Of a stretch of 64,000 nt of DNA, positions 1 through 47,446 are shown piece after piece (position 1 is the first letter of the stretch; each line of letters begins with the position of its first letter). This DNA is from Gammaproteobacteria bacterium (GTDB lineage Bacteria > Pseudomonadota > Gammaproteobacteria > Ga0077536). Below the pieces are notes generated by a model, which saw only the letters and a list, made by a program, of their open reading frames with translations, was not told where the DNA came from and made no database searches. The DNA is taken from NCBI GenBank assembly GCA_963662545.2, contig CAXXLL010000003.1, positions 2,336,001 through 2,400,000 on the forward strand, written 5' to 3'. A program made the translations under genes and the position numbers.

Positions 1-659
1 TCAACCTTCGACCCTTCAAGAAACTACCCGGTTCTCGCCAGAGCCAGTTCGAGGCCATCGACCGACCCGCGCTGAAACCGCTACCGAGTACCCCCTATGA
101 ATACGCCGAGTGGAAGCAGGCACGCGTGCATATCGACTATCACATCGAGGTCGAGCGCCATTACTACTCCGTGCCGCATCATCTCGTGAAACGACAACTC
201 GATGTTCGTGTGACGGCATCCACCATCGAGTGCTTCCATCAGGGCCAACGCGTGGCCTGTCATCGCCGTGTCAATCAACCCGGGCGGCATACCACCATCA
301 CCGCGCATATGCCCGAGCAGCATCGGCACTTGGCCCAGTTCTCACCCGAGCGATTACAGCGTTGGGCCGCGAAGATAGGCCCCGAGACCGCCGCCCTCAT
401 CACCCAAGTCTTAGCTGAACGACCCCACCCGGAGCAGGGTTACCGTGCCTGCCTCGGGATCTTGCGGCTGGCCAAAAGCTACGGCGATAAACGACTGAAT
501 GCGGCCTGTGCCCGCGCGCTCATCCTCGGCACCCATCGTTACAAAAGTATCGAGTCCATCCTCAAAAAAGGACTCGACCAGCAACCCCTGAATCCACCGA
601 CGGAATCCACGCTGCCCGCCGACCACGGCAATCTCCGTGGACCCGGCTACTATCATTAA
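1..659 (+). CDS. istA: IS21 family transposase IstA, 5'-truncated by the window edge
   Basis: Frame open from base 3 (NLRPFKKLPGSR...EYAEWKQARVHIDYHIEV..HYYSVP) to the typical C-terminus HGNLRGPGYYH; istB follows directly. Confidence 0.92.
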   Translation, partial: NLRPFKKLPGSRQSQFEAIDRPALKPLPSTPYEYAEWKQARVHIDYHIEVERHYYSVPHHLVKRQLDVRVTASTIECFHQGQRVACHRRVNQPGRHTTITAHMPEQHRHLAQFSPERLQRWAAKIGPETAALITQVLAERPHPEQGYRACLGILRLAKSYGDKRLNAACARALILGTHRYKSIESILKKGLDQQPLNPPTESTLPADHGNLRGPGYYH

Positions 660-671
660 GGAGAAACATCG

Positions 672-1430
672 ATGCTGAATCATCCGACCCTCGACCAACT
701 GCAAAGCATGAAGCTCACCGGCATGGCCCAGGCCTTCGAAGAGCAGCTGCAACGCACCGACCTCAACGACTTATCCTTCGACGACCGGCTCGCCTTCCTC
801 GTCGAACGTGAGCACGCTGTACGCTCGAACCGGCAACTCACCTATCGACTCCGCCGCGCCCAGCTCAAGCTCAACGCCACCGTGGAGGACATCGATCATC
901 GCGCACCCCGCGGCCTCGATAAATCCACCCTCAATGAACTTGCCCGCTGCCGCTTCATCAACGACCATCTCAACGTCCTCATCACCGGACCCACCGGCGT
1001 CGGCAAAACCTATCTCGCCTGCGCCATTGCTCATAGCGCTTGTCGTAACGGCTTCTCGGCACGCTATCTCCGTGTCCCGCGATTGCTCACCAACATCACC
1101 CTCGCACGCGGCGACGGCACCTAGCACAAGCTCCTCGCGCAGCTTGCCAAGACTGACCTCGTCATCCTCGATGACTGGGGACTCGCGATACTCAATGCTG
1201 AACAACGGCGGGACCTGCTCGACATCCTCGACGACCGGCACGCGTTGCACTCGACCATCGTGACATCGCAATTACCCGTCAAACAATGGCACGAGGTCAT
1301 CGGCGATCCCACGCTCGCCGATGCCATCCTCGACCGGCTCGTGCACAACGCCTACACGATCAATTTAAAAGGAGAATCCATGCGGAAAAAACAAGCGAAC
1401 TTGACTCAGCCCGATCACTCGGCACAATAA
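672..1430 (+). pseudogene. istB: IS21 helper ATPase IstB with in-frame amber stop at 1122-1124
   Basis: Walker A GPTGVGKT; the frame continues past TAG as [19 protein letters not shown] (Walker B) and on to [15 protein letters not shown]; ORFs 672..1124 and 1245..1430 share one frame. Confidence 0.9.
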
Positions 1431-1910
1431 ACTACACCTGCGTCGCTACGCTCCGATGAGCGATCGGCATGACCGGAACAGGTGATCGGCATCAAATGGA
1501 ATCAGTGATCGGCTTCGCCGGAATACGCAGCTAGGGCCCAGTACAGTTCATGTTTGATACCTGAGTTCAGGGCGTTAAAGGACGTTCAGTCCATGTACGA
1601 CCTCATCTCGGCATGGAAATTTGAACACGAATGCGCGTTTAAGCGGGCGCTCTTCCACCCGCCTGTGGGATCCGACGCACGCGCACCGCGACTTGATGGT
1701 GAAGGAAGCGTTGCGAGCAGAGACACCAGGTGACTCTTAATTCCCAGGCCCTTCGGAATGCGTTTTCAAAGCCGGGCCGTCGCTGGCCGGTTCAAGGAAG
1801 TTTGGTTGGCTGCAATGATTGGAAATACTTATCGACGCCTACCTGGCGGGGGTGTTGTCGTCACGCACGGCCGCCAGGAAGCGGACGGATAGGACCGCGG
1901 CAACGATCAG

Positions 1911-1987
1911 ATTGGGGGCTAATCGGGGGGCCGGATATTATTTAAATGAATGAACTATCTATTAATCAATATGTTAACTTTTAAGTT
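1911..1987. other. Putative integrative-element att junction (arm-type repeats and IHF site) next to the tRNA-Ser 3' end
   Basis: TGGGGGC/GGGGGGC direct repeat 1913-1931; AATCAATATGTTA at 1964-1976 matches IHF consensus WATCAANNNNTTR; AT-rich. Confidence 0.55.
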
Positions 1988-2078
1988 TGGCGGAGAGGGA
2001 GGGATTCGAACCCCCGGAACGCGCTAAGCGTTCAACTGATTTCGAGTCAGCCCCATTCGACCACTCTGGCACCTCTCC
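1988..2078 (-). tRNA. tRNA-Ser(CGA)
   Basis: GGAGAGG/CCTCTCC acceptor stem, GCTGA-CTCGAAA-TCAGT anticodon arm, long variable arm, GGTTCGAATCC, encoded CCA. Confidence 0.96.
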
Positions 2079-2606
2079 TGAAACTTTGTACCTTGTCATA
2101 ACAGCGTCGCTACGCAACGCCGTTCAACTGATTGGATTCGCAAACGAAGGATCGTTTGCTCACCCCTGCGGGGCGCCTGCGCTTCGCTGCGGCGTCCAAC
2201 TTCGCGTTTCGAAGTTGTCGAGTCAGCCCCATTCGACCACTCTGGCACCTCTCCTGAAATTTTAGGTGCTAATAAACCAGCGCTGCTCCGCAACGCCGTT
2301 CAACTGATTGGATTCGCAAACGAAGGATCGTTTGCTCACCCCTGCGGGGCGCCTGCGCTCCGCTGCGGCGTCCAACTTCGCGTTTCGAAGTTGTCGAGTC
2401 AGCCCCATTCGACCACTCTGGCACCTCTCCTGAAATTTTATGTGCTAATAAACCAGCGCCGCTACGCAACGCCGTTCAACTGATTCGATTCGCAAACGAA
2501 GGATCGTTTGCTCACCCCTGCGGGGCGCCTGCGCTCCGCTGCGGCGTCCAACTTCGCGTTTCGAAGTTGTCGAGTCAGCCCCATTCGACCACTCTGGCAC
2601 CTCTCC
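2079..2606 (-). repeat. Tandem array of three 176-bp units, each a 5' half of tRNA-Ser with an 84-bp insertion in the anticodon loop
   Basis: tRNA 5' ends recur at 2078, 2254, 2430, 2606 (period 176); units near-identical. Confidence 0.95.
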
Positions 2607-2699
2607 TGAAAACCTTGTGCATTTCTTAAGGTTCTCTTCCCCCGCATTCTGCGAAATGCATGTGGCGTCCCCTTATTGGGACGAGCTGTTGCGCTTTAA

Positions 2700-2713
2700 G
2701 GGCGCGCAGTATA
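2700..2713 (-). promoter_or_regulatory. Probable stable-RNA promoter (-10 and discriminator) for the tRNA-Ser locus
   Basis: TATACT followed by GC-rich GCGCGCCC on the minus strand; no good -35 seen. Confidence 0.45.
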
Positions 2714-2952
2714 TCGCATGACACCGTCGTGACTTGGCCACCGTCGCTGTAGCGCTCACGCCAGTTCCTTCAGCACCCATTTTAAGAACATAACCGCCAG
2801 TGATTTCGGCCAGCTGTCGACGAATTCGATCTCCCGAATCTTCTTATAGGGCGCGACTCATTCGGCTTAGGACGCTCCAGTATATTATGCGGCTGATCCG
2901 TTGGTGTGATTCGACCATAGCCTAATATCGCCTGGAGCCAACTTTCAACTGC

Positions 2953-4479
2953 ATGAAACCGGCGGCGCGCGGCCTTGTCACACTATCGTTTGGAACCATT
3001 CTTGTGAATTTTCATCCTTCTATGCCTATGAGCTATCACTCATTCTCTCTCCCGGGTCAATCACGCCTGATACGGGCCACCATTGCGTTGCTGGTATGTC
3101 AGATATTGGGATCCTGCACGGCTCCGCCATCGACGGTGGAAGCGGTTCGCGCGGTGGGTGAACTACGGATTGCCACGCTCAATACGGGAACGATTTATTT
3201 CGAAGGTCCCGACGGCTACAGCGGATTCGAACACGACTTGACACGGGCATTCGCCGAATACCTCGGCGTGGAGGCGCGCTATGTGGTCGCGAGCAGCCAC
3301 AGTGAGCTGTCCGAACTCGTCCGGCACAACAAGGCGCACCTGGCCGCCGCTTTGATGCCGATTGGCAATGACCAGGTGAAAGGCCTGTCGTTCGGGCCGT
3401 CCTACGCGACCTTGCGACAAACCGTGATCTACCGCCGCAGCGATCGCCGGCCCGAAAGTATCGAAGACCTGCGCGGGAAATCCATTGCGGCACCCGGCGG
3501 ACGTGGCGCGCGCGCAGTGCTCGAACAGGAGCTTCCTGCCAGCGCGGGCGTTCAATGGACGATACGCGACGACCTTTCGATCGACGACCTGCTGGACCTC
3601 GTCGATCGGAACGAGATCGACTTCGCCGTCGTACCGGCCGGTGAATTCGCAGCCGCGCGTCTCTATTACCCGGAAACGCGTGAGGCCTTCGCCATCGGCG
3701 CACCGCAGGCCGTGGGTTGGCTTTATCATCGCGGTCCCGAAAATAGCCTGTGGACGGCGCAACTCGAATTCCTGAACGCCGTGCGCGGCAATGGAGAGCT
3801 CAAGATCCTGCGCGATCGGTACTTCGGACACATTGAGAAATTTGACTATGCTGAAGCGCGGGCGTTTCTGCGGCACTACGACGAAAGGCTGCCCAAATAT
3901 CGCCGCGCTTTCATCGATACCGGGGCGGAATACGCTGTCGACTGGCTGCTGCTGGCCGCTATGAGCTATCAGGAATCGCACTGGCGCGCAGATGCGAAAT
4001 CGCCGACCGGCGTGCGCGGCCTGATGATGTTGACCAAGCGTACGGCGCGCGCCTTGTCCGTCGACCGCCTCGATCCGATTGAAAGCATCCGCGGCGGCAC
4101 CGAATACCTTGCCGATCTCCGCTCCCGTCTACCCGGACGCATCGCCGAGCCCGATAAATCCTGGTTTGCGCTGGCCGCCTACAACGTCGGGCTCGGACAT
4201 CTGGAAGACGCCCGCGTGTTCACTGAGCAGGCGGGTCTGAATCCGGATCGATGGGCCGAGGTCCGTCAGTACCTGCCGAAACTGTCGAACAAGTCCTGGG
4301 CAAACAAAGCGCGGCACGGTTACGCACGCGGATACCAAGCGGTGCATTTTGTGCAAAACATCCGCCGCTACCACGACGTGCTGCGTTGGCTGGAGAGCGC
4401 GCCCGACGATGAGCCCGAAGCGGCCAGGCCCCCGTCTACCCTGTTCGCACCGATGTTACCCCGCGGGCCGGGAGTCTGA
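2953..4479 (+). CDS. mltF: Membrane-bound lytic murein transglycosylase F
   Basis: N-terminal SBP_bac_3-like domain plus SLT motifs LAAMSYQESHW, GVRGLMML, ALAAYNVG; true start may be slightly downstream. Confidence 0.92.
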   Translation: MKPAARGLVTLSFGTILVNFHPSMPMSYHSFSLPGQSRLIRATIALLVCQILGSCTAPPSTVEAVRAVGELRIATLNTGTIYFEGPDGYSGFEHDLTRAFAEYLGVEARYVVASSHSELSELVRHNKAHLAAALMPIGNDQVKGLSFGPSYATLRQTVIYRRSDRRPESIEDLRGKSIAAPGGRGARAVLEQELPASAGVQWTIRDDLSIDDLLDLVDRNEIDFAVVPAGEFAAARLYYPETREAFAIGAPQAVGWLYHRGPENSLWTAQLEFLNAVRGNGELKILRDRYFGHIEKFDYAEARAFLRHYDERLPKYRRAFIDTGAEYAVDWLLLAAMSYQESHWRADAKSPTGVRGLMMLTKRTARALSVDRLDPIESIRGGTEYLADLRSRLPGRIAEPDKSWFALAAYNVGLGHLEDARVFTEQAGLNPDRWAEVRQYLPKLSNKSWANKARHGYARGYQAVHFVQNIRRYHDVLRWLESAPDDEPEAARPPSTLFAPMLPRGPGV

Positions 4480-5847: not shown

Positions 5848-6735
5848 ATGACCACGAGCGCAAATGCCCGGGCACCGGAACGATCGCCCGCCGCGAGACT
5901 CGTCGACGGCATGGTCGACCTCGTACCGCTACCGCAAGCATACGTACGCCTCCGCGAACTCGTCGATGATCCCAATACCCGCCTCAGCGAATTCGGCGAG
6001 ATCGTCGCGAGCGATCCGGCATTGACGGGCCGCCTCCTGCGTCTCGCCAACAGCGCCTATATGGGGCTTGTTACGCCGGTCGAGTCGATCGAGCATGCTG
6101 TGCGCGTGATTGGCATGACCCAACTCCACGATATCGCGCTCGCGACCTCCGCCATCGGATCGCTGTCCAAGCTCCGGGCGGATCTGTTCGACATCTACGA
6201 TTTCTGGCGTCTGGGCATTTATTGTGCGGTGTGCTCGCGACTGCTCGCCGTGCACTGCGGGCTACCCTCGCCCCAGCGTTCGTTCGTCTCCGGGCTCATG
6301 CACAATATCGGCACGTTGATCTTTGCGCACGAAATGCCCGAAGCCTTCGCTGAATGTCGCGTCCGGGCGACGGCGATAGAGCGGCCCTATTATGAATTAC
6401 AGCTGGAGATGTTCGGCTTCGATTATGCGGAAGTCGGCGCGGAGCTCATGGGGCATTGGAATTTGCCGGGCGCCTTGATCGAGCCGGTAAAGCTCCATAC
6501 TTCGGCCATCGCGAACCTCGACCCCGACCTGCGGCCGGGCGCGGCCGTGCTGCAGATTGCAGCGACCACCGCCCGCGCAGCCCTGTGGGAGTCCAGGGAG
6601 AGCGAACCGGTACCGAATTACGACGCCGAAGCCATCGCGTTTACGCAGATGGACGCGGAGCATATCGAAAAAATGATGACCGAGGCCGATGAGGAGGTCA
6701 TCGAATCCGTCGCGATATTGATGCAGCAGCCGTGA
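5848..6735 (+). CDS. HDOD domain protein
   Basis: LPQAY, DPALTGRLLRLANSAY, GLMHNIG, EVGAELMGHWNLP; ATG 5848 preferred over the long ORF overlapping Sel1. Confidence 0.88.
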   Translation: MTTSANARAPERSPAARLVDGMVDLVPLPQAYVRLRELVDDPNTRLSEFGEIVASDPALTGRLLRLANSAYMGLVTPVESIEHAVRVIGMTQLHDIALATSAIGSLSKLRADLFDIYDFWRLGIYCAVCSRLLAVHCGLPSPQRSFVSGLMHNIGTLIFAHEMPEAFAECRVRATAIERPYYELQLEMFGFDYAEVGAELMGHWNLPGALIEPVKLHTSAIANLDPDLRPGAAVLQIAATTARAALWESRESEPVPNYDAEAIAFTQMDAEHIEKMMTEADEEVIESVAILMQQP

Positions 6736-6795
6736 AGGCGCGCCGTTAACCCGACTATGTCACCAGCGTTCGTCGCGAGGCGGCTCAAGGGCGCG

Positions 6796-8598
6796 TCAGT
6801 CCGGCTCGACCTTGAGGCTGGCGTAGCTGCCGGGCGCTGGCTCGATCACATCTAACCCGCCGTCCCCCGGCACCCGGGCGGGCACCTGATCACCGCCGTG
6901 CCCCGCGATCCACTCAGCCCATCGGCCCCACCATGTTTCTTCGTGGAATTCGGCTTGTTCCAGCCATTCTTCCGCGCTCAACCCCTTGATGTCGGGTCCG
7001 GTGTAATGGCCGTATTGACGTGCTCCCGGCGGATTGATGATGCCGGCGATGTGGCCGGCCTTGCTGAGGATGAATTCCATATCGCCGCTGAAGAGTCGCG
7101 CGCCCGCATAAGTCGATTTCCATGGGGCGATGTGATCCTCGGTCGCCGAGACAAAACAACTCGGCACGTCGACGTCGTGCAAATTGATCGGCGTACCGTC
7201 GATTTTCATTCCACCCGGTTTGCAGAAGACGTTTTCAAGATACATCTTGCGCAGGTAGGTGCTGTGCATACGCGCTGGCATGCGCGTTGAATCCGCGTTC
7301 CAATACAGCAGGTCGAATGCCATCGGCTGCTTGCCGAGCAGGTAATTATTGACGACGAACGACCAGATCAAGTCGTTCGCGCGTAGCATGTTGAAGGTCG
7401 ACGCCATCTCCGCGCCGTCGAGATAGCCTCGTTCGTTCATCATGCTCTCGACGTTCTCGAGTTGTTCCTCGTCAATGAACACGCCGAGGTCGCCGGGTTC
7501 AGTGAAATCCAGCATTGAGCAGAAATAGGTGGCTGCGTGAATGCGGTCATCGCCCTTTGCTTTCATATACGCGAGCATACCGCCAAGCAGGGTGCCGCCC
7601 AGGCAGTAACCTATGGCATTGACCGATTTCTCGCCGACCGCCTGCTCGATCGCGTCGAGCGCCGCCAACGGACCTTCACCTACGTAGTCGTCGAAATCCT
7701 TTTCGGCCAGGCGCTCGTCGGGGTTGACCCATGAAACGACGAACACCGTGAGCCCCTGTTCGAGCGCCCACTTAATAAAGGAATTCTTCTGGCCCAGGTC
7801 GAGCACGTAATACTTGTTGATCCAGGGCGGTACGATCAATAAAGGACGCCGATAGACGGTATCCGTCGTCGGTTCGTATTGGATGAGTTGTATTAATTCG
7901 TTTTGAAAGACGATTTTGCCCGGCGTGATCGCGAGGTTCTCGCCCAGTTTGAAAGCGTTCGAATCTACCATCTTGGTGCACAGACGGCCGGTTGCGGGGT
8001 CGATGTCGGCCAGGAAATTCTTGAGGCCGTCGACGAGGTTGCGCCCGCCCGATTCGACCGTTGCGTGCAGCACCTCCGGGTTGGTCAGCACGAAATTGGT
8101 CGGCGCCATCGCGTCGATGTACTGGTTGGTGTAGAACTCGATCTTTTTCTTCGTCTTGTCGTCGAGGCCCTCGGCTCCGGCCACGACCGACTGCATGACC
8201 CTGGCCGTCGCGAGGTAGGTTTGTTTGACGTAATCGAAGAAGGGATTCTTATCCCAGTCCTCGGCTTTGAACCGTCGGTCGTTGCGCCCGGCCTCGACCA
8301 CGGGTTCCGCCTCAGCGCCGAGCAGGCGTTGCGCGGTGGACTGCCAAATCTGCATGTAGGTATGCCAGGCATTGAACTGCGCTTCGAGCAGGGCTGCGGG
8401 ATCGCGCGCCAAATCTTTGGTAAACGAGGCGAATGCCTGCAGGATGCCGAGCGGATCCATCGCTTTCAGATCGTGGGAGGAATGCGAATCAAAAAATTTC
8501 TGCATCAAGACCTGCGATTGGGCGCTGACGTTGGCGAGGGCCTCGGTGACCTCCTGCGGACTGGGCAGCGGTCCGGGGTACGGCATCTTATCGGTCAT
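6796..8598 (-). CDS. phaC: Class I poly(3-hydroxyalkanoate) synthase
   Basis: PPWINKYYVLDL, lipase box GYCLGG, DLLYWNAD, DHIAPW, GHIAGIINPP. Confidence 0.96.
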   Translation of the reverse strand: MTDKMPYPGPLPSPQEVTEALANVSAQSQVLMQKFFDSHSSHDLKAMDPLGILQAFASFTKDLARDPAALLEAQFNAWHTYMQIWQSTAQRLLGAEAEPVVEAGRNDRRFKAEDWDKNPFFDYVKQTYLATARVMQSVVAGAEGLDDKTKKKIEFYTNQYIDAMAPTNFVLTNPEVLHATVESGGRNLVDGLKNFLADIDPATGRLCTKMVDSNAFKLGENLAITPGKIVFQNELIQLIQYEPTTDTVYRRPLLIVPPWINKYYVLDLGQKNSFIKWALEQGLTVFVVSWVNPDERLAEKDFDDYVGEGPLAALDAIEQAVGEKSVNAIGYCLGGTLLGGMLAYMKAKGDDRIHAATYFCSMLDFTEPGDLGVFIDEEQLENVESMMNERGYLDGAEMASTFNMLRANDLIWSFVVNNYLLGKQPMAFDLLYWNADSTRMPARMHSTYLRKMYLENVFCKPGGMKIDGTPINLHDVDVPSCFVSATEDHIAPWKSTYAGARLFSGDMEFILSKAGHIAGIINPPGARQYGHYTGPDIKGLSAEEWLEQAEFHEETWWGRWAEWIAGHGGDQVPARVPGDGGLDVIEPAPGSYASLKVEPD

Positions 8599-18085: not shown

Positions 18086-18315
18086 TGCGCTGTCCCGTAA
18101 TAAGCCTTCATAATTCGCTGGTCCTCGTGCCGCGCTACGGCGTTGCTCGTCGTTGCCGTATTGCGGATACCATCCATGGCATCCGCCCTTCGGGCCCGCC
18201 TGCGGCGGTCCAAATTCGTTCCGGACGAATTTGTCCCGATACGACGCCTCCTCGCGCCTTGTATCGCACCACGAGTCCTGCGCGATTTATTGAAGTTTAT
18301 TACGGGACAGCACAC
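18085..18315. mobile_element. MITE (231 bp) with terminal inverted repeats and TA duplication, carrying a nested hairpin element
   Basis: TA-GTGCGCTGTCCCGTAATAA ... TTATTACGGGACAGCACAC-TA; removal restores TAG-C-ATG between the flanking genes. Confidence 0.8.
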
Positions 18316-23563: not shown

Positions 23564-25096
23564 CTATTTGAAATCGTTGAACAGCTTCCTGGTATTCAAG
23601 CTCAGAGGCGCGGCGCAGGCGCCCATCGCGAAGGCCGGACCCGGCCTGTTGCAATCGTTGACGCCTTTGTTCGATTCATCTGCGCGGGGATCAACTAAGG
23701 TGTACCCGTATTCCGATTCGGCGTCATCCTCTTGTTGTTCGGCCGGCGGTTTCGGCGGCGTCCACCCGCGGTCTTCAATGGGTGCGCGGGTGCGGCGCCC
23801 AAGGCGTTCGTCCGTGTTTTCAATCTGCTCGTTGAGCTCGCGATCCAGGCGCTCCAGGCGATCTTCAGCCTCGGCGTCACGGCCTGTGGTCACGCGCTCG
23901 TGGCGCACGATATGCGGGGTGATGAGCACCACGGTCTCGGTCTTGATGAGGAGTTGCTCGGACCGCCCAAACAGCCTTTCGATCAGCGGCAGGTCGCCGA
24001 TGATCGGGACATTTTCCCGCCGCTGGCTGGCTGTGTTGCGGATCAATCCGCCGATGAATATCGTCTGGCCGTCTTCGGCCAGGAGACGCGTGGTCACTTC
24101 GGTCGATTTCTTGCTCGGCACGCCATCGAGTGTCACCGTTCCCGAACTGACTTCCGGATGAATGTCCATCATGATCCGGCCCGCACGGTCGACGTAGGAT
24201 CTCACGCGCATGATGATGCCTGTCTCGAGAAACTCGACGCTTTCGGTGGTGACCTGGTTGATGGTCGTGGTCACGCGGTATCCAATCTCGTCACCGATGA
24301 TGACTTCTGCTTCCTCATGCTCCAGCGCCAGCAGCTTCGGCGTCGACAAGGTGCGTACCCGGCCCTTGACGCTCAAGGCGTTCAATACCGCTTCGACGTT
24401 CGAGTTGAACAGACTGAAAAAGAGTCCGGGTGCGGTGAGGGAGGCAAAGCCCTGCGCAGCGACGCGGCCGACGCCGCCATCCGAGCTAAAGAGCCGGGTC
24501 CAGTCAATGCCGTAGGTATCGCTCGCGTCCAGGGTTATTTCGAGGATGCGGGCTTCGATCAGGATTTGCGCCGGCTGCTTGTCGAGCTCGGTCAACAGGT
24601 TTTCGAGCCGGCGTATGAAGTCGGGCAGGTCCTCGACGACTAGCAGGTTGCGTTCAGGCAAGGCCGTTATCTTGCCGTAGCGCGAGAGGTGGTTCTCGAG
24701 AATCTCCGCTACGAGTTCCGGATCGCTGTATTGAATCTTGAACGAACGAACTTCCGTCAGGCCGCCCGCGATGTCCTTGCCGGCTTCCTCGCGGCTGACG
24801 ATGTAATAAGTCCCATCGTCATATTCGACGGCATAGCCGGCGGCTGCCGCCACGGTACGCACGGCCTGTTGCAAGCTTACATCGTAAAGATTGACGGAAA
24901 TTTCACCCGTTACGTCGCTGCTCAGGAGAATGTTCGTCTTGCCTTCACGGGACAGCATTTCGAACACTTCGGCGATATCCGCGTAGCGCACGGACAACGA
25001 GATGTTGCCAGCCGCCGCGAGCGGGACCGTGAACGCGACCGTCAATCCGAACAAAAGTATTTGTATCGCGCGCTTACTCACGGCCCTGGTTCTCAT
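23564..25096 (-). CDS. Secretin (PilQ/MshL/GspD family)
   Basis: STN-like N-domain, QILIEARILE, LSTPKLL, IFIGGLI, VPIIGDLPLI, LITPHIV. Confidence 0.9.
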   Translation of the reverse strand: MRTRAVSKRAIQILLFGLTVAFTVPLAAAGNISLSVRYADIAEVFEMLSREGKTNILLSSDVTGEISVNLYDVSLQQAVRTVAAAAGYAVEYDDGTYYIVSREEAGKDIAGGLTEVRSFKIQYSDPELVAEILENHLSRYGKITALPERNLLVVEDLPDFIRRLENLLTELDKQPAQILIEARILEITLDASDTYGIDWTRLFSSDGGVGRVAAQGFASLTAPGLFFSLFNSNVEAVLNALSVKGRVRTLSTPKLLALEHEEAEVIIGDEIGYRVTTTINQVTTESVEFLETGIIMRVRSYVDRAGRIMMDIHPEVSSGTVTLDGVPSKKSTEVTTRLLAEDGQTIFIGGLIRNTASQRRENVPIIGDLPLIERLFGRSEQLLIKTETVVLITPHIVRHERVTTGRDAEAEDRLERLDRELNEQIENTDERLGRRTRAPIEDRGWTPPKPPAEQQEDDAESEYGYTLVDPRADESNKGVNDCNRPGPAFAMGACAAPLSLNTRKLFNDFK

Positions 25097-25445
25097 GGCG
25101 TTCATCGTCGAGCGATACCACGAAACTTTCATCCCCCTGTAGTAACACGACGTCACGCTCACCGGCGGCGACCACCTGGAAATTTTCGAACCGGCCGCCG
25201 ACCGCGATCAATTCCCCGTCGAGGTTAACAACCGTTGTTAGCGGTGAGCGCATGATGGCGCGCAGTCGCGGCACGGCGACGACAGCGTGCTCCTCTCCAA
25301 GCACCAATGGTTCAGGGGGCGCCAGTTCCTTCAGTGCAGGTTTGCGAAAGGGATCCGTCGTCAAGATGAACTTTTCGTCACCGGCATGCACCGTCCATAC
25401 AGCGGCGGCAAGCAAGGCGAAAAATTGGGGGACGCCCGTCTTCAT
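25074..25445 (-). CDS. PilP/MshK-like protein
   Basis: Signal peptide, DPFRKP, LRAIM..VVNLDG; lies between pilO-like gene and secretin. Confidence 0.6.
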   Translation of the reverse strand: MKTGVPQFFALLAAAVWTVHAGDEKFILTTDPFRKPALKELAPPEPLVLGEEHAVVAVPRLRAIMRSPLTTVVNLDGELIAVGGRFENFQVVAAGERDVVLLQGDESFVVSLDDERHENQGRE

Positions 25446-26005
25446 GCGCCGCCGCTCCGCGAGCGATAAGAAACCATGGTCAATCGCATGCGCCTGGTAT
25501 CGCCTGGCGCGACGGGTTCGATGTCGAACGATTTGACCACCATGGGACCGAGTTCCCGCTCGGCGTCGTGCAACCAGGCCACGAGCCGGAAGTACCCCCC
25601 CACGACTTCGACGTGAAAGGGGATCTCGTCGAATTCGAAGACCTCCGCGATATCGCCGGGCTCGACGCTGATCAGTTGCACCCGGCGGCTCTGTGCGAGC
25701 CGATCGAGGCGACCGATAACGAAGGCCACCATTTCGTTTGCCGCGAGCGACGGGCCCGCGCCCTGGAGTTGTTCCCGCAGCGCCGCAGTACTCGCCTCGA
25801 CCGAACGAATGCGGGCCTCGATGGGTTGATCGCTCGGGTGTGCGCGGCGCAGATCGAAAAACGTATCTCGCGCTTCGGCCAGGTACCCCATCGGTTTCTT
25901 CAACACGTAGAGGTGGCCGGCCAGACCGGTCAGAGCGAACGCGACCGCCAGCAGCATCGCCAGACTGCGGGGCGGGACGTGCTGGGTGATCATCGGCCGA
26001 GGCAT
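25442..26005 (-). CDS. PilO/MshJ-like alignment protein
   Basis: Single TM, coiled coil, EIPFHVEVVGGYFRLVAWL. Confidence 0.75.
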   Translation of the reverse strand: MPRPMITQHVPPRSLAMLLAVAFALTGLAGHLYVLKKPMGYLAEARDTFFDLRRAHPSDQPIEARIRSVEASTAALREQLQGAGPSLAANEMVAFVIGRLDRLAQSRRVQLISVEPGDIAEVFEFDEIPFHVEVVGGYFRLVAWLHDAERELGPMVVKSFDIEPVAPGDTRRMRLTMVSYRSRSGGA

Positions 26006-26661
26006 CAGGCTTCCTGTGCGGTGTAAACCGTGATCGCGAGATCGAAATCGATCACTTCGCGCGTAGATGCGCGGCGGCTACGGGTTCTCAGGATCTTGAC
26101 GTCGGCGATTTCCGCACGTCCGAGCAGGCGTTTGACGAAGTCCGCGAGCGCGGTGTGGTCGATGGCACTGCCGGCAATCTCCATATGGGTCGCGAGTCGC
26201 CAGGTCTTTTCGGCAACGCCCTTGCGCGGCTCGGCCACGATGATGAAGTAGCCGGTGTGTACTGACTCGGGCGCATCATCGGTTACTTCGCCGCGCCGGC
26301 GAAAAGTCCATTTACGGAACCAGGTATCACCGTCCACCGCCGCGTCGATGAGCGCAAACATTCTTTCCGCCGGCAAGCCTCCGCGCAGGCTTTCCAGGAT
26401 TCGAACCCGTCGCGCGAGCACCTTCTGCTCCGCGTTCAATCGATCGAAATGTTGCCGCTGTTCAGCGTCGTAGCTGATATCAGCTCTCAGGGCATCGATA
26501 TTTTGCTCGATGCGCTTCTGCTCCAGACCAAGCACGGCACGGCTGCCGCCAATGGCTCCCAACAGTAGAACGAACACGGGTATGAACCAAACGAGCATGC
26601 GCCGCGCACGGCGTTCGCTCCGATAGTCCTGCGGGATCAAGTCGAGCTTGGCGGACGACAC
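26005..26661 (-). CDS. PilN-like alignment protein
   Basis: LDLIPQDY (INLLP-like), TM, coiled coil, IAGSA..ALADFVKRL. Confidence 0.75.
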   Translation of the reverse strand: MSSAKLDLIPQDYRSERRARRMLVWFIPVFVLLLGAIGGSRAVLGLEQKRIEQNIDALRADISYDAEQRQHFDRLNAEQKVLARRVRILESLRGGLPAERMFALIDAAVDGDTWFRKWTFRRRGEVTDDAPESVHTGYFIIVAEPRKGVAEKTWRLATHMEIAGSAIDHTALADFVKRLLGRAEIADVKILRTRSRRASTREVIDFDLAITVYTAQEA

Positions 26662-26662
26662 C

Positions 26663-27793
26663 TCAGGTCGTCTCCCGCAAAGCGAGGCCCGTGGCCACGG
26701 CAACCCCGGAGATCGGCCCGATGTCGCTCATATCGGTCGCCCCCTCGGAGACGTCGAGGCCGTAGAAGGGATTGATACTCGAGATCTCGACGCCGCACAG
26801 CGACGACAGCAAGCGGTCCGCATTGGGCCAGCGCGCGAGGCTCCCGAACGCGTAAATCTTGCCGGCAGAGCCGCGCGTTTCCGCCGCCACGTAATCACGT
26901 ATGCGAAGGACATCCTTGGCCAGAGCGATGAACTGAGGTTTGAGGATCTCCGACAGCGCGCTCTTGATGCCCGCCGCGGGGTCCGCGGCGTCATGGGTAG
27001 CGTCGACCGATCTGCCGAGCGCGAGTCCGTGGCGCTGCAAGAGGTCCAGGGCTTTCGCCGGCGTGCAGTCGAGGGCGTCACCGAGCCGGGACACGACGGC
27101 CCGAGTGCCGAAATCGATATCGCGATCGAGCAGCAATTCGCCGTTCGACAACACCGTGACGAAGCTCTTGACCGTGCCGAACGTAATGGCGACGACGGTA
27201 GAAGCCGCGTCCTTGTCGATCTCGGCGATCAAGCGCTGGATTGCGATCGGCCCGACTTCGAGCGCGACGACGTCGAGCGAGCATTTGCGCAGGGCTTCGA
27301 GATATCCGACCACGGCGTCGTGATCGGCTACCGCCACGAGCGCAGCTCGGCCGTTGCCGTCGTTGCCGCGCGCGATCGGCAGATAGTCGACTACCCGTGC
27401 TGCGATCGAACCGCCGAGCCGCTCCTCGGTTGCCCGAACGATCGCAGCGACCTCGTCGGTCGGGCTCTCGCAACGATAGTTGATCACGAGCATTTCAACG
27501 ATGGACGGCGGTACCGAAGCGACTACCTTGCGACCGCGAAATGGCCGCTCCGCGAACGCGTGGCGCATCAGGCGTTTCAATTCAAGCGGCGAATCGAGCA
27601 AAGCTTCGCGTTCGCGATCGTAAGGCAGCGATGCTGCGGCATGAATCCGGCACTCGCCGCCTAGGCGCGCGACCTGGACCAGGTTGACGCGTTCGGTGCC
27701 GAAATCGATACCGATGGCACCGGTCGATGCGACGCCCAGAAAGTGTGCGGGTACGAACGGACGCGCGTGCTTCAGGACCCCAGCAATAACCAT
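26663..27793 (-). CDS. PilM-like actin-fold protein
   Basis: AIGIDFG, VVDY, ALEVGPIA, RDIDFG, VATGLALR. Confidence 0.8.
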   Translation of the reverse strand: MVIAGVLKHARPFVPAHFLGVASTGAIGIDFGTERVNLVQVARLGGECRIHAAASLPYDREREALLDSPLELKRLMRHAFAERPFRGRKVVASVPPSIVEMLVINYRCESPTDEVAAIVRATEERLGGSIAARVVDYLPIARGNDGNGRAALVAVADHDAVVGYLEALRKCSLDVVALEVGPIAIQRLIAEIDKDAASTVVAITFGTVKSFVTVLSNGELLLDRDIDFGTRAVVSRLGDALDCTPAKALDLLQRHGLALGRSVDATHDAADPAAGIKSALSEILKPQFIALAKDVLRIRDYVAAETRGSAGKIYAFGSLARWPNADRLLSSLCGVEISSINPFYGLDVSEGATDMSDIGPISGVAVATGLALRETT

Positions 27794-28953
27794 GATCCAC
27801 TGTCCTCGAAATTCGTATTCTCGCCCGGCAACACGTGCCCGCGACCGCTGCATAAATCCTTCGCGGCATACAGATTCTGATCGGCGCGGCGATAGAGCAC
27901 CGACATCGGTATCGTCGAATCGAGCGAAGCCGCGACGCGCCCATAGCTCAGTGAAATCTTCGCCTGCTCGAGGCCCTTGATCGCCTGTACGCGCTCGCGA
28001 ATATCCTGCAGGGCCGCCTGCAGAAGCGGCTCCGGATCATGAGCTACGAGCAATACGCAGAATTCGTCGCCGCCGAGACGGATTACATACCCTTGCTCGC
28101 CAACATGTTCGCTGAGTGCCGTGCTCACGCATCGCAGAACCTTATCGCCCGCCGCGTGGCCGTAGGTATCGTTGACGATCTTGAAATCGTCGATGTCGAA
28201 CAAGGCGAAATGAAAGTCGTCGTTGCCGTCGCCGAAACGCGCGCACAGGTCCGCCAGCGCGTGCTTGAGGTAGCGCCGGTTCCACGCGCCGGTCAGGGGA
28301 TCGACGTTCGACAGGCGAAAGAGGTGTTCGCGGGCTTCTTCGAGGTCGTGGCGCGCAGTGAGCTCATTCTTGCGCACGGCCACCGCCCGCCCCACAACAG
28401 CAAGGCTCGCGACCGCCGTCGTGAACATAAAGACCTGGAGCAACATCAAGCTATCAGCGCCAAAGCGCGCGGCCACGCCCATGGTCGAACTGGTCAGCAG
28501 CAGCCAGATCACGACAGTCACGATCGTCGCCTCGCGTAAACCCCACGGCACCATCGGGATCACGACGAACAGCAGCAGCACGTTCGCCAGGAGCAGCGGG
28601 CTGATATGGCCCGTGCGGTGTGCGACGAAGACCAGCGCGGTTGCCGAGATGACGAGCAGGGCCATGCCGAGCAGATAGAGGCCGCGGACCTCTTTGATCT
28701 TGCTCGCCGACAGGAAAATGTGAATACACAGGGCGCCGACCAGCGCGTAGGCTTGGAGGTAATAGTCGTCGAGCTGGAGCTGGGCGTGGGCCAAGGTCGC
28801 GACCAGCACCAGGCCGGCGAGCACGGCGCTCATCGCGCGCACCCCCGTTCGAACCTCGCCAACGAGATTCGATTCGGCATAGTCGCAAAGTTCGTTTCGC
28901 GAGAAATTCGTCGCCGACCAGGTGTGCCTGATATCGTCTAGGAACTTACCCAC
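27772..28953 (-). CDS. Membrane diguanylate cyclase
   Basis: About six TMs, DPLTGAWNRR, DIDDFK.VNDTYGH, RLGGDEF. Confidence 0.92.
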   Translation of the reverse strand: MGKFLDDIRHTWSATNFSRNELCDYAESNLVGEVRTGVRAMSAVLAGLVLVATLAHAQLQLDDYYLQAYALVGALCIHIFLSASKIKEVRGLYLLGMALLVISATALVFVAHRTGHISPLLLANVLLLFVVIPMVPWGLREATIVTVVIWLLLTSSTMGVAARFGADSLMLLQVFMFTTAVASLAVVGRAVAVRKNELTARHDLEEAREHLFRLSNVDPLTGAWNRRYLKHALADLCARFGDGNDDFHFALFDIDDFKIVNDTYGHAAGDKVLRCVSTALSEHVGEQGYVIRLGGDEFCVLLVAHDPEPLLQAALQDIRERVQAIKGLEQAKISLSYGRVAASLDSTIPMSVLYRRADQNLYAAKDLCSGRGHVLPGENTNFEDSGSWLLLGS

Positions 28954-29898: not shown

Positions 29899-29995
29899 CG
29901 ACGCTATATTCTCTTTACTTAACGGTCCGTCTCCGGCTATCGGCTGAGCGTGATATTTCTTGAACGGAACCGATGGTTCGGCATGAGGCAGTATT

Positions 29996-30811
29996 TAGGG
30001 GACATTCATGTTTTTCCCATTTTTTTGCTCGACTTACGACTTACGGGGTCGCCCCCGCGGCCGAATACTGGCTTCCAAACCAAGTTCTTCTGCGACTTTG
30101 AGCCGCCATGCTTGGTGGCCGAATGGTCGGCCACGCACCACACATTCGCGAATCGCCTCAACCTCTTCGGTGGTCTGAGGCGCGTTTACAAATTCAATCC
30201 AATCTGCGGCGCAAGCTTCGGGAGCCATCTCGCTCAACAAACTCCGTCGCACTGTCATTCCTGCGCTCAGGCTGGACCACGGCCAAGATTCTGCCGTGTT
30301 GCTCAAACGTGCTCGAAGAGGATTACGCTCAACGTATCGCAAAACTGTCAGTAGATGTCGATCCTGTTCAATGGGAAACGCTTTGAATCGCCCCTGCCAT
30401 ATTCGGCCATCTGTCCCATACTTTTTGTGATATCTCCTTACATGAGCCGTCATAAGCCGTTGCATCCATCGACTGAGATCCCCGTCGCCGAATGGGTACA
30501 AGATGAAATGAAAATGGTTCGGCATGAGACAGTAGCCAAGCACGCGCATCGGTACCTTGGCGCTCGACCGTGCCATGAGGTCTACAAAAGCCTGATAATC
30601 ACTTGGATGATGAAATACGCGCGCGCGGCGGTTACCACGGTTTATAACGTGGTAGCAGGTCCCTCCGACCGAAGCGCGTGCCGTCCGTGGCATCTCGCAA
30701 GCTTACCAAAAACCTGCTCAGATTTTAGGGGACAATCATCATTTTCATGCGCCTAACCTTCGAAAAGATGAATGTCCCCATTAATACGGCTTCGAAAAGA
30801 TGAATGTCCCC
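29996..30811. mobile_element. RAYT locus bounded by GGGGACATTCAT-type REP-like repeats
   Basis: TAGGGGACATTCATG at 29996, TAGGGGACAATCATC at 30726, inverted GAAAAGATGAATGTCCCC ending at 30779 and 30811. Confidence 0.75.
30034..30693 (-). CDS. REP-associated (Y1/HUH) tyrosine transposase
   Basis: MPR..R, YHVINRGN, YCLMPNHFH (HUH), WQGRFK, RYVERNPLRA, WPWSS, RPRGRPRK tail. Confidence 0.9.
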   Translation of the reverse strand: MPRTARASVGGTCYHVINRGNRRARVFHHPSDYQAFVDLMARSSAKVPMRVLGYCLMPNHFHFILYPFGDGDLSRWMQRLMTAHVRRYHKKYGTDGRIWQGRFKAFPIEQDRHLLTVLRYVERNPLRARLSNTAESWPWSSLSAGMTVRRSLLSEMAPEACAADWIEFVNAPQTTEEVEAIRECVVRGRPFGHQAWRLKVAEELGLEASIRPRGRPRKS

Positions 30812-30831
30812 TTTTATTCTTCTCTCTTCGC

Positions 30832-37727: not shown

Positions 37728-37846
37728 TTTGCTGCTCCGTTTTCGGATCTTTCCGCTGAATGGCTGAAGGTGTTAGCGGCAGCTCCCGTGGGCTCCTTTA
37801 GCGCTATTTCGTGGTGCGCGGGGCGCGATTCGCCGGCGAAGCCCTC

Positions 37847-37891
37847 CTAACGGTCGTCGTAGTCCTGGTGGTCGGCTATGAACTGACCCGT
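37847..37891 (-). pseudogene. 3' remnant of a second pilin paralog
   Basis: Encodes TGQFIADHQDYDDR-stop versus TGQFIADHSGYDDR-stop of the neighbouring pilin. Confidence 0.8.
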
Positions 37892-38828
37892 TGGGATACT
37901 TCGGTTCATAGGTCTTGAGGAACAGCTCGAACGCCTTCTCGGCGTCGGCCTTTGTCGCGGCCTGCCAGATCGCGTGCAGGGCTTGCTTGGCTTTGGCCTG
38001 TGCTGACTTCGGTAGGCAGTTCAGCACGTTCATCGTCTTGTGCATCCAGCAGCGTTGCTGGCGGGTCTCACCGTAGACTTCCTCCAGTGCGGCCCAGAAG
38101 CCCATGGCACCGTCCCCGATCGCCAGCTTGGGAATATTCATCCCGCGTGACTTCAATTTCAGCAACACCTCGCGCCAGCTCTGCGTGGACTCCCGCACAC
38201 CATCCTCCATCGCCAAAAAACGCTTCTCGCCTCGCTCATTGACGCCGATCACCACCAACGCACACAGCTTCGTGTGCTCCGCCCGCAGGCCACTGTAGAC
38301 ACCGTCCGCCCACACCTACACCCAGCGGTCTTGGTCCAATCGCCCCTCGCACCAGTCGCGGTATTCTTGCGCCCACACCTGCTTCAAGCGCGACACTGTG
38401 CTCGCCGACAGGCCCTTCGCCTGCGGCCCCAACAAAACTTCCAGCGCAGCGCCCATTTCGCCACTGGAAACGCCCTTCAAATACAGCCACGGCACGGCCG
38501 CCTCCAAGGTTCTTGTCTTGCGCACATACGGCGGCACCAGCGCTGAACGGAAGGTCACCGGCTCGCCGAGCTTCGAACGAACCTTCGGGATCCTCACCGT
38601 CACCGGCCCCAAGCCCGTCTGCAACTGGCGTTCCGGCAAATAGCCGTTGCGAACCACACCTGCTTTGTCGTCCACCGTGCGATGTCCTGAATACTGCGCC
38701 ATATATTCTGCCAGCTCGATTTCAACCGCTCGTTCAATCAGAGCCCGAGCACCGTTTCTCAAGACCTCCGTCAACGGATCTGGTATTCCTTCTCGACCTG
38801 ATAATTCAACAACGTTACTCTCTCTCAT
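37892..38828 (-). pseudogene. IS256 family transposase, amber stop at 38316-38318 and 3' truncation
   Basis: RNGY..R...T.LG....IPK.R, WLYLKGVSS, WV*VWADGV, IGDGAMGFW, QQRCWMHK; similarity stops at YEPKYP. Confidence 0.9.
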
Positions 38829-41656: not shown

Positions 41657-41779
41657 ATGGCGAAAGTCCATCGCAACTCACTCCAGCCAGGCCATCGCGT
41701 CCACTGGTACGAGATCATCGAAATCCTGGGCCAGGGCGGATTTGGCATTACCTACCTCGCGCTGGATACCAATCTGTGA
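41657..41779 (+). pseudogene. N-terminal stub of a Ser/Thr protein kinase
   Basis: MAKVHRNSLQPGHRVHWYEIIEILGQGGFGITYLALDTNL-stop (Gly-rich loop); not in the ORF track. Confidence 0.8.
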
Positions 41780-41832
41780 GAACGAGTCCAAATTATTACA
41801 GTTTAGGGTACCGAACGGGGGCCTAATTTAGT

Positions 41833-42010
41833 TGGCGCGCCCGGAGGGATTGATTCGCAAACAAAGTATTGTTTGCTCACCCCCTGCGGGGGCGCCTGCG
41901 CTTCGCTGCGGCGTCCAATCTCGCTTCGCGAGATTGTCGAACCGAGGACTTCAAACCAAAGCCTCCCACCACGCCAACTAAATTGGGCCCCTAACGGAGC
42001 CCAATTTAGT
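41833..42010 (-). repeat. 178-bp unit downstream of tRNA-Arg with duplicated tRNA 3' end interrupted by an 86-bp hairpin element
   Basis: TGGCGCGCCCGGAGGGATT at 41833 and 42011; element 41852-41937 splits GATT/CGAACC. Confidence 0.88.
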
Positions 42011-42015
42011 TGGCG
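41972..42015 (-). terminator. Hairpin overlapping the tRNA-Arg 3' end (terminator or processing structure)
   Basis: Perfect 17-bp inverted repeat CGCCAACTAAATTGGGC / GCCCAATTTAGTTGGCG. Confidence 0.55.
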
Positions 42016-42087
42016 CGCCCGGAGGGATTCGAACCCCCGACCCCCTAGTTCGTAGCCAGGTACTCTATCCAACTGAGCTACGGGCGC
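42011..42087 (-). tRNA. tRNA-Arg(ACG)
   Basis: GCGCCCGTAGCTCAGTTGGATAGAG, CCTGG-CTACGAA-CTAGG, GGTTCGAATCC, CCA; 77 nt. Confidence 0.96.
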
Positions 42088-42121
42088 GGTTTTGCTCGCG
42101 CAGATCGACGCGAGGGCGGGG

Positions 42122-42150
42122 ATTATCGGAGCACCGATCGAGGCTGTCAA
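42122..42150 (-). promoter_or_regulatory. Sigma70 promoter of tRNA-Arg
   Basis: TTGACA, 17 bp, GATAAT, then GC-rich CCCCGCCC discriminator. Confidence 0.8.
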
Positions 42151-42159
42151 ATCATCCGA

Positions 42160-42471
42160 CGGAGGGATTATTCCGCACATCCATGTGCTCCACCCTCGCT
42201 AAGGCTCAGGCCAGCCTTCGGCTGTTCAAATTTGTTCCCGACAAATTTGTGATTCGCATACAAAGGATTGTTTGCTCACCCCTACGGGGCGCCTACACGT
42301 CGCCGCGGCGTCCACAAAATCGTCTGGAACGATTTTGAACATCACGTGCCAGCGTAATGGCCCGTAGGGCGAGCCACATGGACGTGGCGAGTAATCTCGC
42401 TTCGCGAGATTGTCGAACCCCCGACCCCCTAGTTCGTAGCCAGGTGCTTTATCCAGTGGCGTTACGGGCGC
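42160..42471 (-). pseudogene. Degenerate tRNA-Arg copy split in the T-loop by three tandem/nested hairpin elements
   Basis: CGGAGGGATT at 42160-42169 and CGAACCCCCGACCCCCTAGTTCGTAGCCAGG...TACGGGCGC at 42414-42471, separated by 244 bp. Confidence 0.85.
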
Positions 42472-42605
42472 GGAAAGTTGGGGGGCTAAAAGTAAATTTC
42501 CTCGAGTTACAGAATCGCTTCATGCGAATCCCGGCTTCTTGGATGTTACGCGCAGGCGTGATGAAACTACTCGGACGGCGAGGCGAAATTCCTGAGCGCA
42601 GGTGC

Positions 42606-47439: not shown

Positions 47440-47446
47440 CTTGGCC

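Follow-up and report, generated by a model that had tools for sequence, protein, structure and literature searches.

Tandem repeats of the tRNA-linked type (tRNA-linked repeats, TLRs, also called RtT-type) were first seen in 1978 at the tyrT locus of Escherichia coli and, in the account of PMC8144298, number 22 in strain K-12, spread over ten loci in operons for tRNA or rRNA; the last 18–19 bp of a TLR are the same as the 3′ end of the gene immediately before it, and that account gives the repeats no accepted origin and no known function. The same source reports that the 5S-linked TLRs bind Hfq and CsrA in vitro and that the 19 tRNA-linked ones have low CsrA-binding prediction scores (PMC8144298). 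RNAs of the RtT family are reported from Actinobacillus pleuropneumoniae, upstream of tRNA-Asn and tRNA-Lys and with Northern signals (PMC4986893), an annotated and expressed RtT small RNA (sRNA) is reported from Thioalkalivibrio (PMC8092127), and covariation support is reported for parts of the RtT structure (PMC8250186). The present analysis concerns a stretch of 64,000 nucleotides (the window) of a gammaproteobacterial genome (assembly GCA_963662545.2, contig CAXXLL010000003.1, positions 2,336,001 to 2,400,000), in which the gene for tRNA-Ser(CGA) is preceded by a tandem array of its own 5′ half, each copy carrying an 84-nt insert in the anticodon loop. The best explanation, to which a probability of about 0.7 is given as a whole, the origin of the repeated unit included, is that the insert is the four-hairpin core of a TLR and that the units derive from tRNA-Ser copies into which such a core had come.

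The intact tRNA-Ser(CGA) gene is single and occupies 1988–2078 on the minus strand (91 nt; ARAGORN, and the Rfam tRNA model at 54.8 bits). Tandem Repeats Finder reports an array at 2042–2611 (period 176, 3.2 copies, 95% matches, score 1031), which corresponds to three 176-nt units on the minus strand (2079–2606), upstream of the tRNA gene and abutting it: unit 1 at 2431–2606, unit 2 at 2255–2430 and unit 3 at 2079–2254. Every unit is made up, in this order, of tRNA nt 1–37, the 84-nt insert, tRNA nt 38–50, a GC hairpin and a spacer. The first piece (2570–2606, 2394–2430 and 2218–2254 in units 1, 2 and 3, respectively) runs through the anticodon CGA and is identical to tRNA-Ser at 37 of 37 positions in all three units. 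The insert (2486–2569, 2310–2393 and 2134–2217) is exactly 84 nt long and is placed precisely on both sides, between the anticodon and the next base, without target duplication; the 13 bases AATCAGTTGAACG, which are tRNA nt 38–50 (2473–2485, 2297–2309 and 2121–2133), come directly after it. The tRNA match ends there, at nt 50 of 91, the variable arm, the T-arm and the 3′ acceptor strand being absent, and neither ARAGORN nor the Rfam tRNA model called any of the units as a tRNA. All the units, 176 bp long, are truncated and dead copies of the gene for tRNA-Ser(CGA), from which no tRNA can be made. A preliminary description, made from the letters of this DNA, had proposed the exact 176-bp period, the three units and this order of parts, all of which were borne out by Tandem Repeats Finder and by the unit-by-unit comparison.

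Units 1 and 2 differ at only 4 of 176 positions, while unit 3 differs from unit 1 at 14 (12 of them in the last 29 nt) and from unit 2 at 16 (13 in the last 29 nt). The sequence between the repeats has no coding capacity, and a 45-nt piece of the insert, searched with up to 3 mismatches, occurs at three places only in the window, none of 100 shuffles giving any match. The GC hairpin that follows the insert and its tRNA bases is terminator-like in units 1 and 2, with a 9-pair stem and GTTTATT (about 2452–2472 in unit 1, then GTTTATT and spacer; 2278–2298 in unit 2, then spacer), but not in unit 3, where the hairpin has no T run and the spacer is distinct and similar to the leader before unit 1. 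This leader, GGGGGAAGAGAACCTT..AAGGTTTTCA (2607–2651, minus strand), has no Rfam match; compared by eye with the RtT consensus, it seems similar to the left arms found in canonical TLRs and in E. coli RtT, which is weak evidence. The leader of the intact tRNA-Ser is a variant of the one before unit 1. On the other side of the gene, 3′ of tRNA-Ser, there are fragments of IS21 type (Mu-transposase C-terminal domain and truncated IstB; 3–1124, plus strand) with the look of a decayed insertion sequence (IS).

The insert folds at −38.4 kcal/mol (z −3.25), and the four hairpins that had been read in it from the outset are supported by the comparison of 38 copies of the core (MAFFT alignment A2). Of 910 cells of the alignment that should pair, 97.4% do so, versus 27–44% with slid partners, and the covariation score is 0.415, versus at most 0.053 with slid partners. 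Two-sided changes were found in 8 of 8 pairs of hairpin 1, in 2 of 4 of hairpin 2 and in 3 of 8 of hairpin 4, the pairs of hairpin 3 and most of those of hairpin 4 having been fixed by the search pattern with which relatives were collected. The core is a conserved structured element, and it is clearly under structural selection as a set of four hairpins. The covariance model built on A2, named R1, scores 88.7 bits with unit 1 and 89.3 bits with each of units 2 and 3; its E-values are rough, as the calibration was short.

Concerning the family to which the core belongs, the tyrT locus of E. coli K-12 provided a positive control, in which the Rfam RtT model marks four repeats at 133–138 bits. 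When R1 was run with filters off, its four best matches in the 2.5-kb tyrT locus were those four repeats (10.1–13.7 bits, E 6e-4 to 1e-2), aligned at full length and in register from TTCGAC to AATCC. R1 also matched the 5S-linked rrB repeat (24 bits, E 1e-7), the core of which is bordered by ..GAGTAGGA on the left and AACTGCCAGGCAT on the right, both short pieces of the 5S 3′ region; homology of the core is found, at modest scores, with 4 of 4 tyrT repeats and with rrB. A Rodentibacter locus outside the seed of the model (L017) scored 29.6 bits with R1 and passed the Rfam model AaHKsRNA22 at 51 bits, and no tRNA was present within the 8 kb examined around it. AaHKsRNA22 (RF02902), an sRNA family of Pasteurellaceae, is also the Rfam family that matches the insert best, and its hairpins come in the same order. 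The insert is filed here as a diverged member of the TLR superfamily, outside both Rfam RtT and AaHKsRNA22. A match to an already described family had been named in the preliminary description as something that would undo its proposal, and such a match was obtained in part: R1 recovers a TLR-type core, while the curated Rfam models stay below threshold. Other candidates were set aside. The sX4 and plastid Rfam matches merely overlap the tRNA, and a hammerhead-like reading of CTGATGAG..GGTTCGAC, present in some left arms, lacks the second core strand and has no Rfam ribozyme match. The array gave no match by blastn in plasmid and phage collections.

Compared with the TLRs of E. coli, the Ser units share the setting in a tRNA operon, abutting a stable-RNA gene, the tandem arrangement, the period (176 versus 178 bp at tyrT) and the order of the four hairpins. 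They differ in that they repeat the 5′ half of the tRNA and not its last 18–19 bases (agreement with the tRNA 3′ end is 2 of 18), in that they lie upstream and not downstream of the gene, and in that the core is in the anticodon loop and not in the T-loop. [quoted passage not shown] The upstream position is the one reported for the RtT-family RNAs of A. pleuropneumoniae (PMC4986893). With the 5S-linked repeats RrA, RrB and RrF, as presented in PMC8144298, the likeness is in the core architecture and in the location of the core between short pieces of the neighbouring stable-RNA gene; the differences are the linkage to 5S rRNA, the left junction (..TAGGA/C, the slash marking here and below the start of the core) and the GGA motifs in their hairpin loops, whereas the window family has only a conserved GGACG linker. 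The contrast that had been drawn at the start with the tyrT/rtT repeats, a 5′-half array upstream being the opposite of their arrangement, is true as far as the arrangement goes, but it missed that the insert itself is of the rtT/TLR type and that copies in the ordinary arrangement flank the other tRNA gene of the window.

That gene, tRNA-Arg(ACG) (42011–42087, minus strand; ARAGORN, Rfam tRNA 64 bits), is intact and is the only other tRNA of the window, and nhmmer located two further copies of the insert on its two sides (41849–41943 and 42249–42340). The downstream one, 69 nt away, is a canonical TLR core (41849–41941, minus strand, R1 86.6 bits): it follows GGTTCGA and is followed by 18 bases of which 18 are those of the tRNA from T-loop nt 59 to CCA, as is the rule for the 3′ ends of E. 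coli TLRs. As in the tyrT repeats, its left junction is TTCGA/C and its right one ..AATCC followed by the tRNA 3′ end, and the left arm GAGAAC..GGTTCGA of the tyrT repeats is common to canonical copies. In both tRNAs the element starts after the TCGA of a 7-base loop, CTCGA/AA in the anticodon loop of Ser and TTCGA/AT in the T-loop of Arg, and the sequence of hairpin 1 differs between Ser and Arg copies yet pairs in both.

The copy upstream of tRNA-Arg (42248–42339, minus strand, R1 53.8 bits) belongs to a mosaic (42160–42445, minus strand) composed of a partial tRNA-Arg, an orphan hairpin 1, some 55 nt of unknown origin, the full core and, directly after it, a divergent core-like stretch, which ends GGAATA/ATCCCTCCG, the latter a 9-base piece of the tRNA 3′ part. 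As read from the sequence, the first two parts (42393–42445) consist of a tRNA copy from the anticodon arm to the T-loop TTCGA (42413–42445) joined to a hairpin 1 (42393–42412) that is identical to that of the downstream copy. Between the upstream cores and the tRNA there is a strong promoter-like site (42122–42150, minus strand; TTGACA, 17 nt, GATAAT; 11 of 12 matches). As this site sits after them, the cores upstream of tRNA-Arg are probably not transcribed from the tRNA promoter.

Relatives were sought with a degenerate pattern taken from the conserved hairpin 3–4 part, which matched all five copies of the window known from nhmmer and the array. One scan of a genome collection with this pattern gave 34 loci in 23 assemblies, mostly of uncultured Gammaproteobacteria, the remainder being two Lysobacterales, three contigs of a Hydrogenophaga intermedia assembly and one Rodentibacter. 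R1 gave 51 matches at E ≤ 0.01 among the 34 loci and found a sixth copy in the window, while the Rfam RtT model gave none at its gathering threshold among 18 loci scanned. In the 56 copies tabulated (50 from the loci, 6 from the window), many of which are tandem or orthologous duplicates and not independent events, the pentamer preceding the core reads TTCGA 38 times, CTCGA 4 times (in the three Ser units and in one copy from another genome, L023) and AATCA 3 times, where one core comes directly after another, and has some other sequence in 11 copies.

A same-strand tRNA lies within 700 nt of 41 of the 56 copies, and the tRNAs concerned are those for Ser (four anticodons), Arg (three anticodons), Gln, Glu and Asp. 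The 22 copies located downstream are typically 64–74 nt from the tRNA 3′ end; in 10 of them the 3′ flank equals tRNA nt 59 to the end at no fewer than 14 of 18 positions, and their left arm contains the terminator of the tRNA, a copy of its 3′ end that is inverted and imperfect, and the GAGAAC..GGTTCGA hairpin. A GAGAAC-like left arm, as in E. coli, occurs in 14 of the 24 canonical copies listed. As to the 19 copies located upstream, in 7 of them the tRNA 5′ part is represented by a contiguous run of 13–72 nt, up to TTCGA, and the tRNA match resumes beyond the core for just 7–13 bases. The Ser units share this upstream layout of 5′ part, core and 13 bases, with the difference that the loop is the anticodon loop. 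In these loci the core nearly always follows the TTCGA of a tRNA T-loop fragment and that its position is after the fifth base of a 7-base loop reading YTCGA/A, which is the T-loop in most copies.

Tandem arrays are not peculiar to the window: besides E. coli tyrT, there are three copies in a row at each of L024, L021 and L011 and two at each of L008 and L033, and in L022, L028 and L015 the elements are joined to one another at ..GAATCA/C... Some of the other loci deserve a separate mention. In L009 a GOLLD RNA match (7077–7560; 152 bits, cut-off 150) lies within an array of seven tRNAs (6271–7785), and the TLR core of this locus stands 58 nt after tRNA-Asp, with the left junction GGTTCA instead of GGTTCGA. 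In L007 (about 3640–3690) and L025, tRNA-Gln-like 5′ parts have an anticodon loop one base longer (..CTTAAGA..), while L016 keeps CTCTGA; the altered loop suggests decay of these interrupted tRNA-Gln-like copies.

The only counterpart of the Ser array comes from L023, a 594-kb contig of another gammaproteobacterium, where one full and one internally deleted unit stand upstream of tRNA-Ser(CGA) in an array cut off by an IS. The array at tRNA-Ser of related genomes had been suggested as something to look for, and L023 has the same arrangement. The L023 unit is about 80–84% identical to that of the window and the tails are homologous (25 of 33), from which it follows that the anticodon-loop arrangement predates the split between the two organisms. 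In both of them, the tRNA-derived bases after the core follow the tRNA of their own genome. Among the copies examined, those in an anticodon loop are confined to tRNA-Ser(CGA) and to these two genomes.

Why this anticodon loop should have been used can be considered from the loop itself. An anticodon loop has the form N32 U33 N34 N35 N36 R37 N38. Going by textbook tRNA anatomy, only tRNA-Ser(CGA) with A37 can repeat, at anticodon-loop positions 2–6 and in the same register, the T-loop string UCGA/A. That the loop of tRNA-Ser(CGA) copies this string suggests loop-specific insertion or recombination. The precise junction on both sides fits placement by loop sequence and shape and speaks against a rearrangement by chance. 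Simple deletion from the TCGA of the anticodon loop to the TCGA of the T-loop was also considered; it accounts for the left junction and leaves the right one unexplained.

The origin that we propose for the array would comprise four steps. In the first, a core would have entered a duplicated copy of tRNA-Ser, by insertion or by short-homology recombination guided by the UCGA/A loop. In the second, the disrupted copy would have been truncated by recombination between the near-identical AGTTGAACG of the tRNA and AGTTGGACG of the core; the tail of the unit, after the 13 tRNA bases and before the tRNA leader, is identical at 17 of 22 positions to the part of the core that comprises the end of hairpin 1 and hairpin 2 (a score reached by 14 of 2000 shuffles), and this resemblance to a partial core, together with the join at AGTTGAACG and AGTTGGACG, suggests truncation by recombination with a second core. 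In the third, the unit would have been multiplied by unequal crossing-over between repeated segments made of leader plus 5′ half, for which homology is available because units 1 and 2 are near-identical and the 5′ half and the leader are shared. In the fourth, cores would have been exchanged or homogenised between the tRNA loci of a genome. Outside hairpin 1, core identity averages 0.87 for different loci of the same genome (19 pairs), 0.77 for the same tRNA type in different genomes (145 pairs) and 0.71 for the remaining combinations (529 pairs), and the Ser-linked core of L023 is 93% identical to the Arg-linked core of the window, closer than to the Ser-linked cores of the window. The higher identity within genomes points to spread or gene conversion within them. 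The idea put forward at the beginning, of an array that is the record of repeated duplication caused by the inserted element, comes close to the reading favoured here.

Several observations weigh against this reading of the insert and of its origin. The Rfam RtT model (RF00391, gathering cut-off 45 bits) had no match at E ≤ 10 in 1700–3000 or in 41750–42500, and AaHKsRNA22 remained below its cut-off of 39.8 bits, with 25.8 bits in each Ser unit and 17.3–21.8 bits at the tRNA-Arg locus; the R1 scores on the tyrT repeats are low and their E-values rough. Since they were set by the search pattern, the pairs of hairpin 3 and most of those of hairpin 4 are uninformative on structure; relatives outside that pattern went unseen in the single scan, the junction counts include many duplicates, and the anticodon-loop arrangement is present in two genomes only. 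As to the mechanism, insertion and two recombination events are not distinguishable, and base composition could account for part of the higher similarity within genomes. Clustering of the 1037 open reading frames (ORFs) in the 8-kb flanks of the 34 loci gave no mobility gene that recurs beside the copies, and the Y1 transposase of the window was rejected as the mover of the core, as the GGGGACATTCATC repeats that flank its gene are unrelated to TLR hairpins. Finally, a scan of 1700–3100 for sigma-70-like promoters gave none on the minus strand, either before the Ser array or within it.

The alternative that survives best, although it is rather unlikely, is a sharper form of the first step proposed above: TLR cores would be non-autonomous, site-specific insertion elements that enter 3′ of YTCGA in the hairpin loops of stable RNAs and are moved in trans, in the manner of small hairpin-ended IS200/IS605 derivatives or REP. 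The REP/REPIN-RAYT elements and the IS200/IS605 derivatives are short hairpin elements located 3′ of a fixed short target, without duplication, in many copies per genome that are similar within a genome. TLR cores resemble them in the fixed left pentamer, TTCGA or CTCGA in 42 of 56 copies, in the precise 84-nt insertion without target duplication, and in the hairpins at both ends (hairpins 1 and 4, both supported). The spread beside at least Ser, Arg, Gln, Glu and Asp tRNAs, the core-core tandems, the greater likeness of cores within than between genomes and the fact that the sole anticodon loop used carries the T-loop pentamer would be understood in the same way. However, a cognate Y1 gene flanked by the same repeats was found neither in the window nor in the 8-kb flanks of the 34 loci, where no transposase or integrase recurs, the recurrent ORF clusters being response regulators, GGDEF-EAL proteins, local synteny groups and spurious ORFs over repeats. 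Moreover, the highly variable sequence of hairpin 1 is a poor fit with protein recognition of an end, the locus-specific arms copied from the neighbouring tRNA are not explained by simple transposition, and the 5S-linked copy of E. coli comes after ..TAGGA and not after TCGA. TLR cores differ from these elements also in having four hairpins with conserved linkers and not one or two end hairpins. Concerning the Y1 gene of the window, the only one there (30037–30693, minus strand), it is IS200-like, encodes 219 amino acids, a RAYT-like size, matches PF01797 with E 6e-13, and has copies of the GGGGACATTCATC repeat, direct and inverted, on both sides (29990–30030 and 30728–30830).

Far less probable is the proposal of the preliminary description that the array yields tRNA-mimic small RNAs acting as decoys for anticodon nucleases, synthetases or modification enzymes. 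It would agree with the exact 5′ half of tRNA-Ser (37 of 37 nt), with the presence after the insert of the 3′ strand of the anticodon stem, which could still close around the insert, and with the keeping of the arrangement in L023. On the other hand, 84 additional nt interrupt the 7-nt anticodon loop after A36, nothing of the tRNA follows nt 50, the tRNA models do not recognise the units, and the predicted fold has no D-arm or anticodon-arm shapes. In many other tRNA fragments the same core is found in the T-loop, a place that presents no anticodon, and no nuclease or defence gene was seen beside the array. The proposal finds no support in these data, nor any link to a nuclease or a synthetase.

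Even less credit is given to an assembly artefact or to scars left at the tRNA by integrase-mediated insertion of islands. The assembly of near-identical repeats in tandem is difficult, and IS21 remnants are present 3′ of tRNA-Ser; but the substitutions between units are ordered, the same layout occurs in the 594-kb contig of another organism, and TLR arrays are tandem in the finished genome of E. coli K-12. Integrase scars repeat the 3′ part of a tRNA around an island, whereas here the 5′ part recurs every 176 bp, with no island or integrase. Lastly, intron-bearing or split genes, spliced or joined into a working tRNA-Ser, are close to refuted: the insert does interrupt the anticodon loop, the site of bacterial group I and of archaeal introns, between exact exon-like flanks, but the downstream "exon" is truncated after nt 50, without T-arm or 3′ acceptor strand, 84 nt is far below the size of a group I intron and contains no catalytic core, no intron family matched at E ≤ 10, an intact uninterrupted tRNA-Ser gene adjoins, ARAGORN found no Ser fragment besides it in the 64-kb window, and the same core is found in T-loops and next to 5S rRNA.

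With respect to expression, the array had been supposed to lie between a likely promoter and the intact tRNA, and the scan mentioned above gave no such promoter. If transcribed, the Ser units would give hairpin-rich RNAs of about 176 nt with the 5′ half of tRNA-Ser, and the terminator-like ends of two of them could attenuate read-through into tRNA-Ser. To judge from sequence, the units are most likely passenger RNA modules of a stable-RNA operon.

Among the other features of the window, the sixth copy is a solitary, divergent TLR-like core with no tRNA nearby (18157–18238, minus strand, R1 34.7 bits, E 2e-9), located between the gene of an FAD-binding oxidase and that of a short-chain dehydrogenase. 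It is enclosed by a perfect 14-nt inverted repeat CTGTCCCGTAATAA (arms at 18297–18310 and 18090–18103), which means that a core can have a closing stem unrelated to any tRNA. Type IV pilus clusters near the tRNA-Arg locus (43186–48412 and 23567–27853, both on the minus strand) encode a ComP-like minor pilin, PilY1, PilX, PilW and a secretin with PilM and seem to be part of the usual gene content, and a Mutator-family transposase split over two ORFs (37776–38828, minus strand) looks like a decayed IS.

The repeat family itself is known; what appears to be new here is the position of the core after CTCGA in the anticodon loop, with tRNA 5′ halves repeated upstream, and no description of an anticodon-loop or 5′-half TLR arrangement was found in the open-access papers searched. 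The range of the family extends well beyond enterics and Pasteurellaceae, to many uncultured Gammaproteobacteria and a Hydrogenophaga. For annotation, half-tRNA arrays of this kind are to be taken as TLR clusters and not as novel split or intron-bearing tRNA genes.

Guide RNAs of transposon ends, as known from the TnpB literature, have a layout of fixed pentamer, structured scaffold and then guide bases. By analogy with this layout, TLR RNAs, with their pentamer, scaffold and 13–18 tRNA-identical bases, might be scaffold-plus-guide RNAs for an unknown partner. A more general idea, to be held only tentatively, is that TLR cores are widespread loop-targeting elements of proteobacterial stable-RNA genes, which enter or recombine between the fifth and sixth positions of 7-base UCGA/A loops. 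If this were true, the tRNA-Ser(CGA) copies would be a natural experiment indicating that the target is read as loop sequence plus shape and not as "the T-loop". The anticodon-loop copy makes the question of TLR origin, whether it is by loop-specific insertion, a testable one, and the main value of the Ser array is as a clue to how TLRs choose their place.

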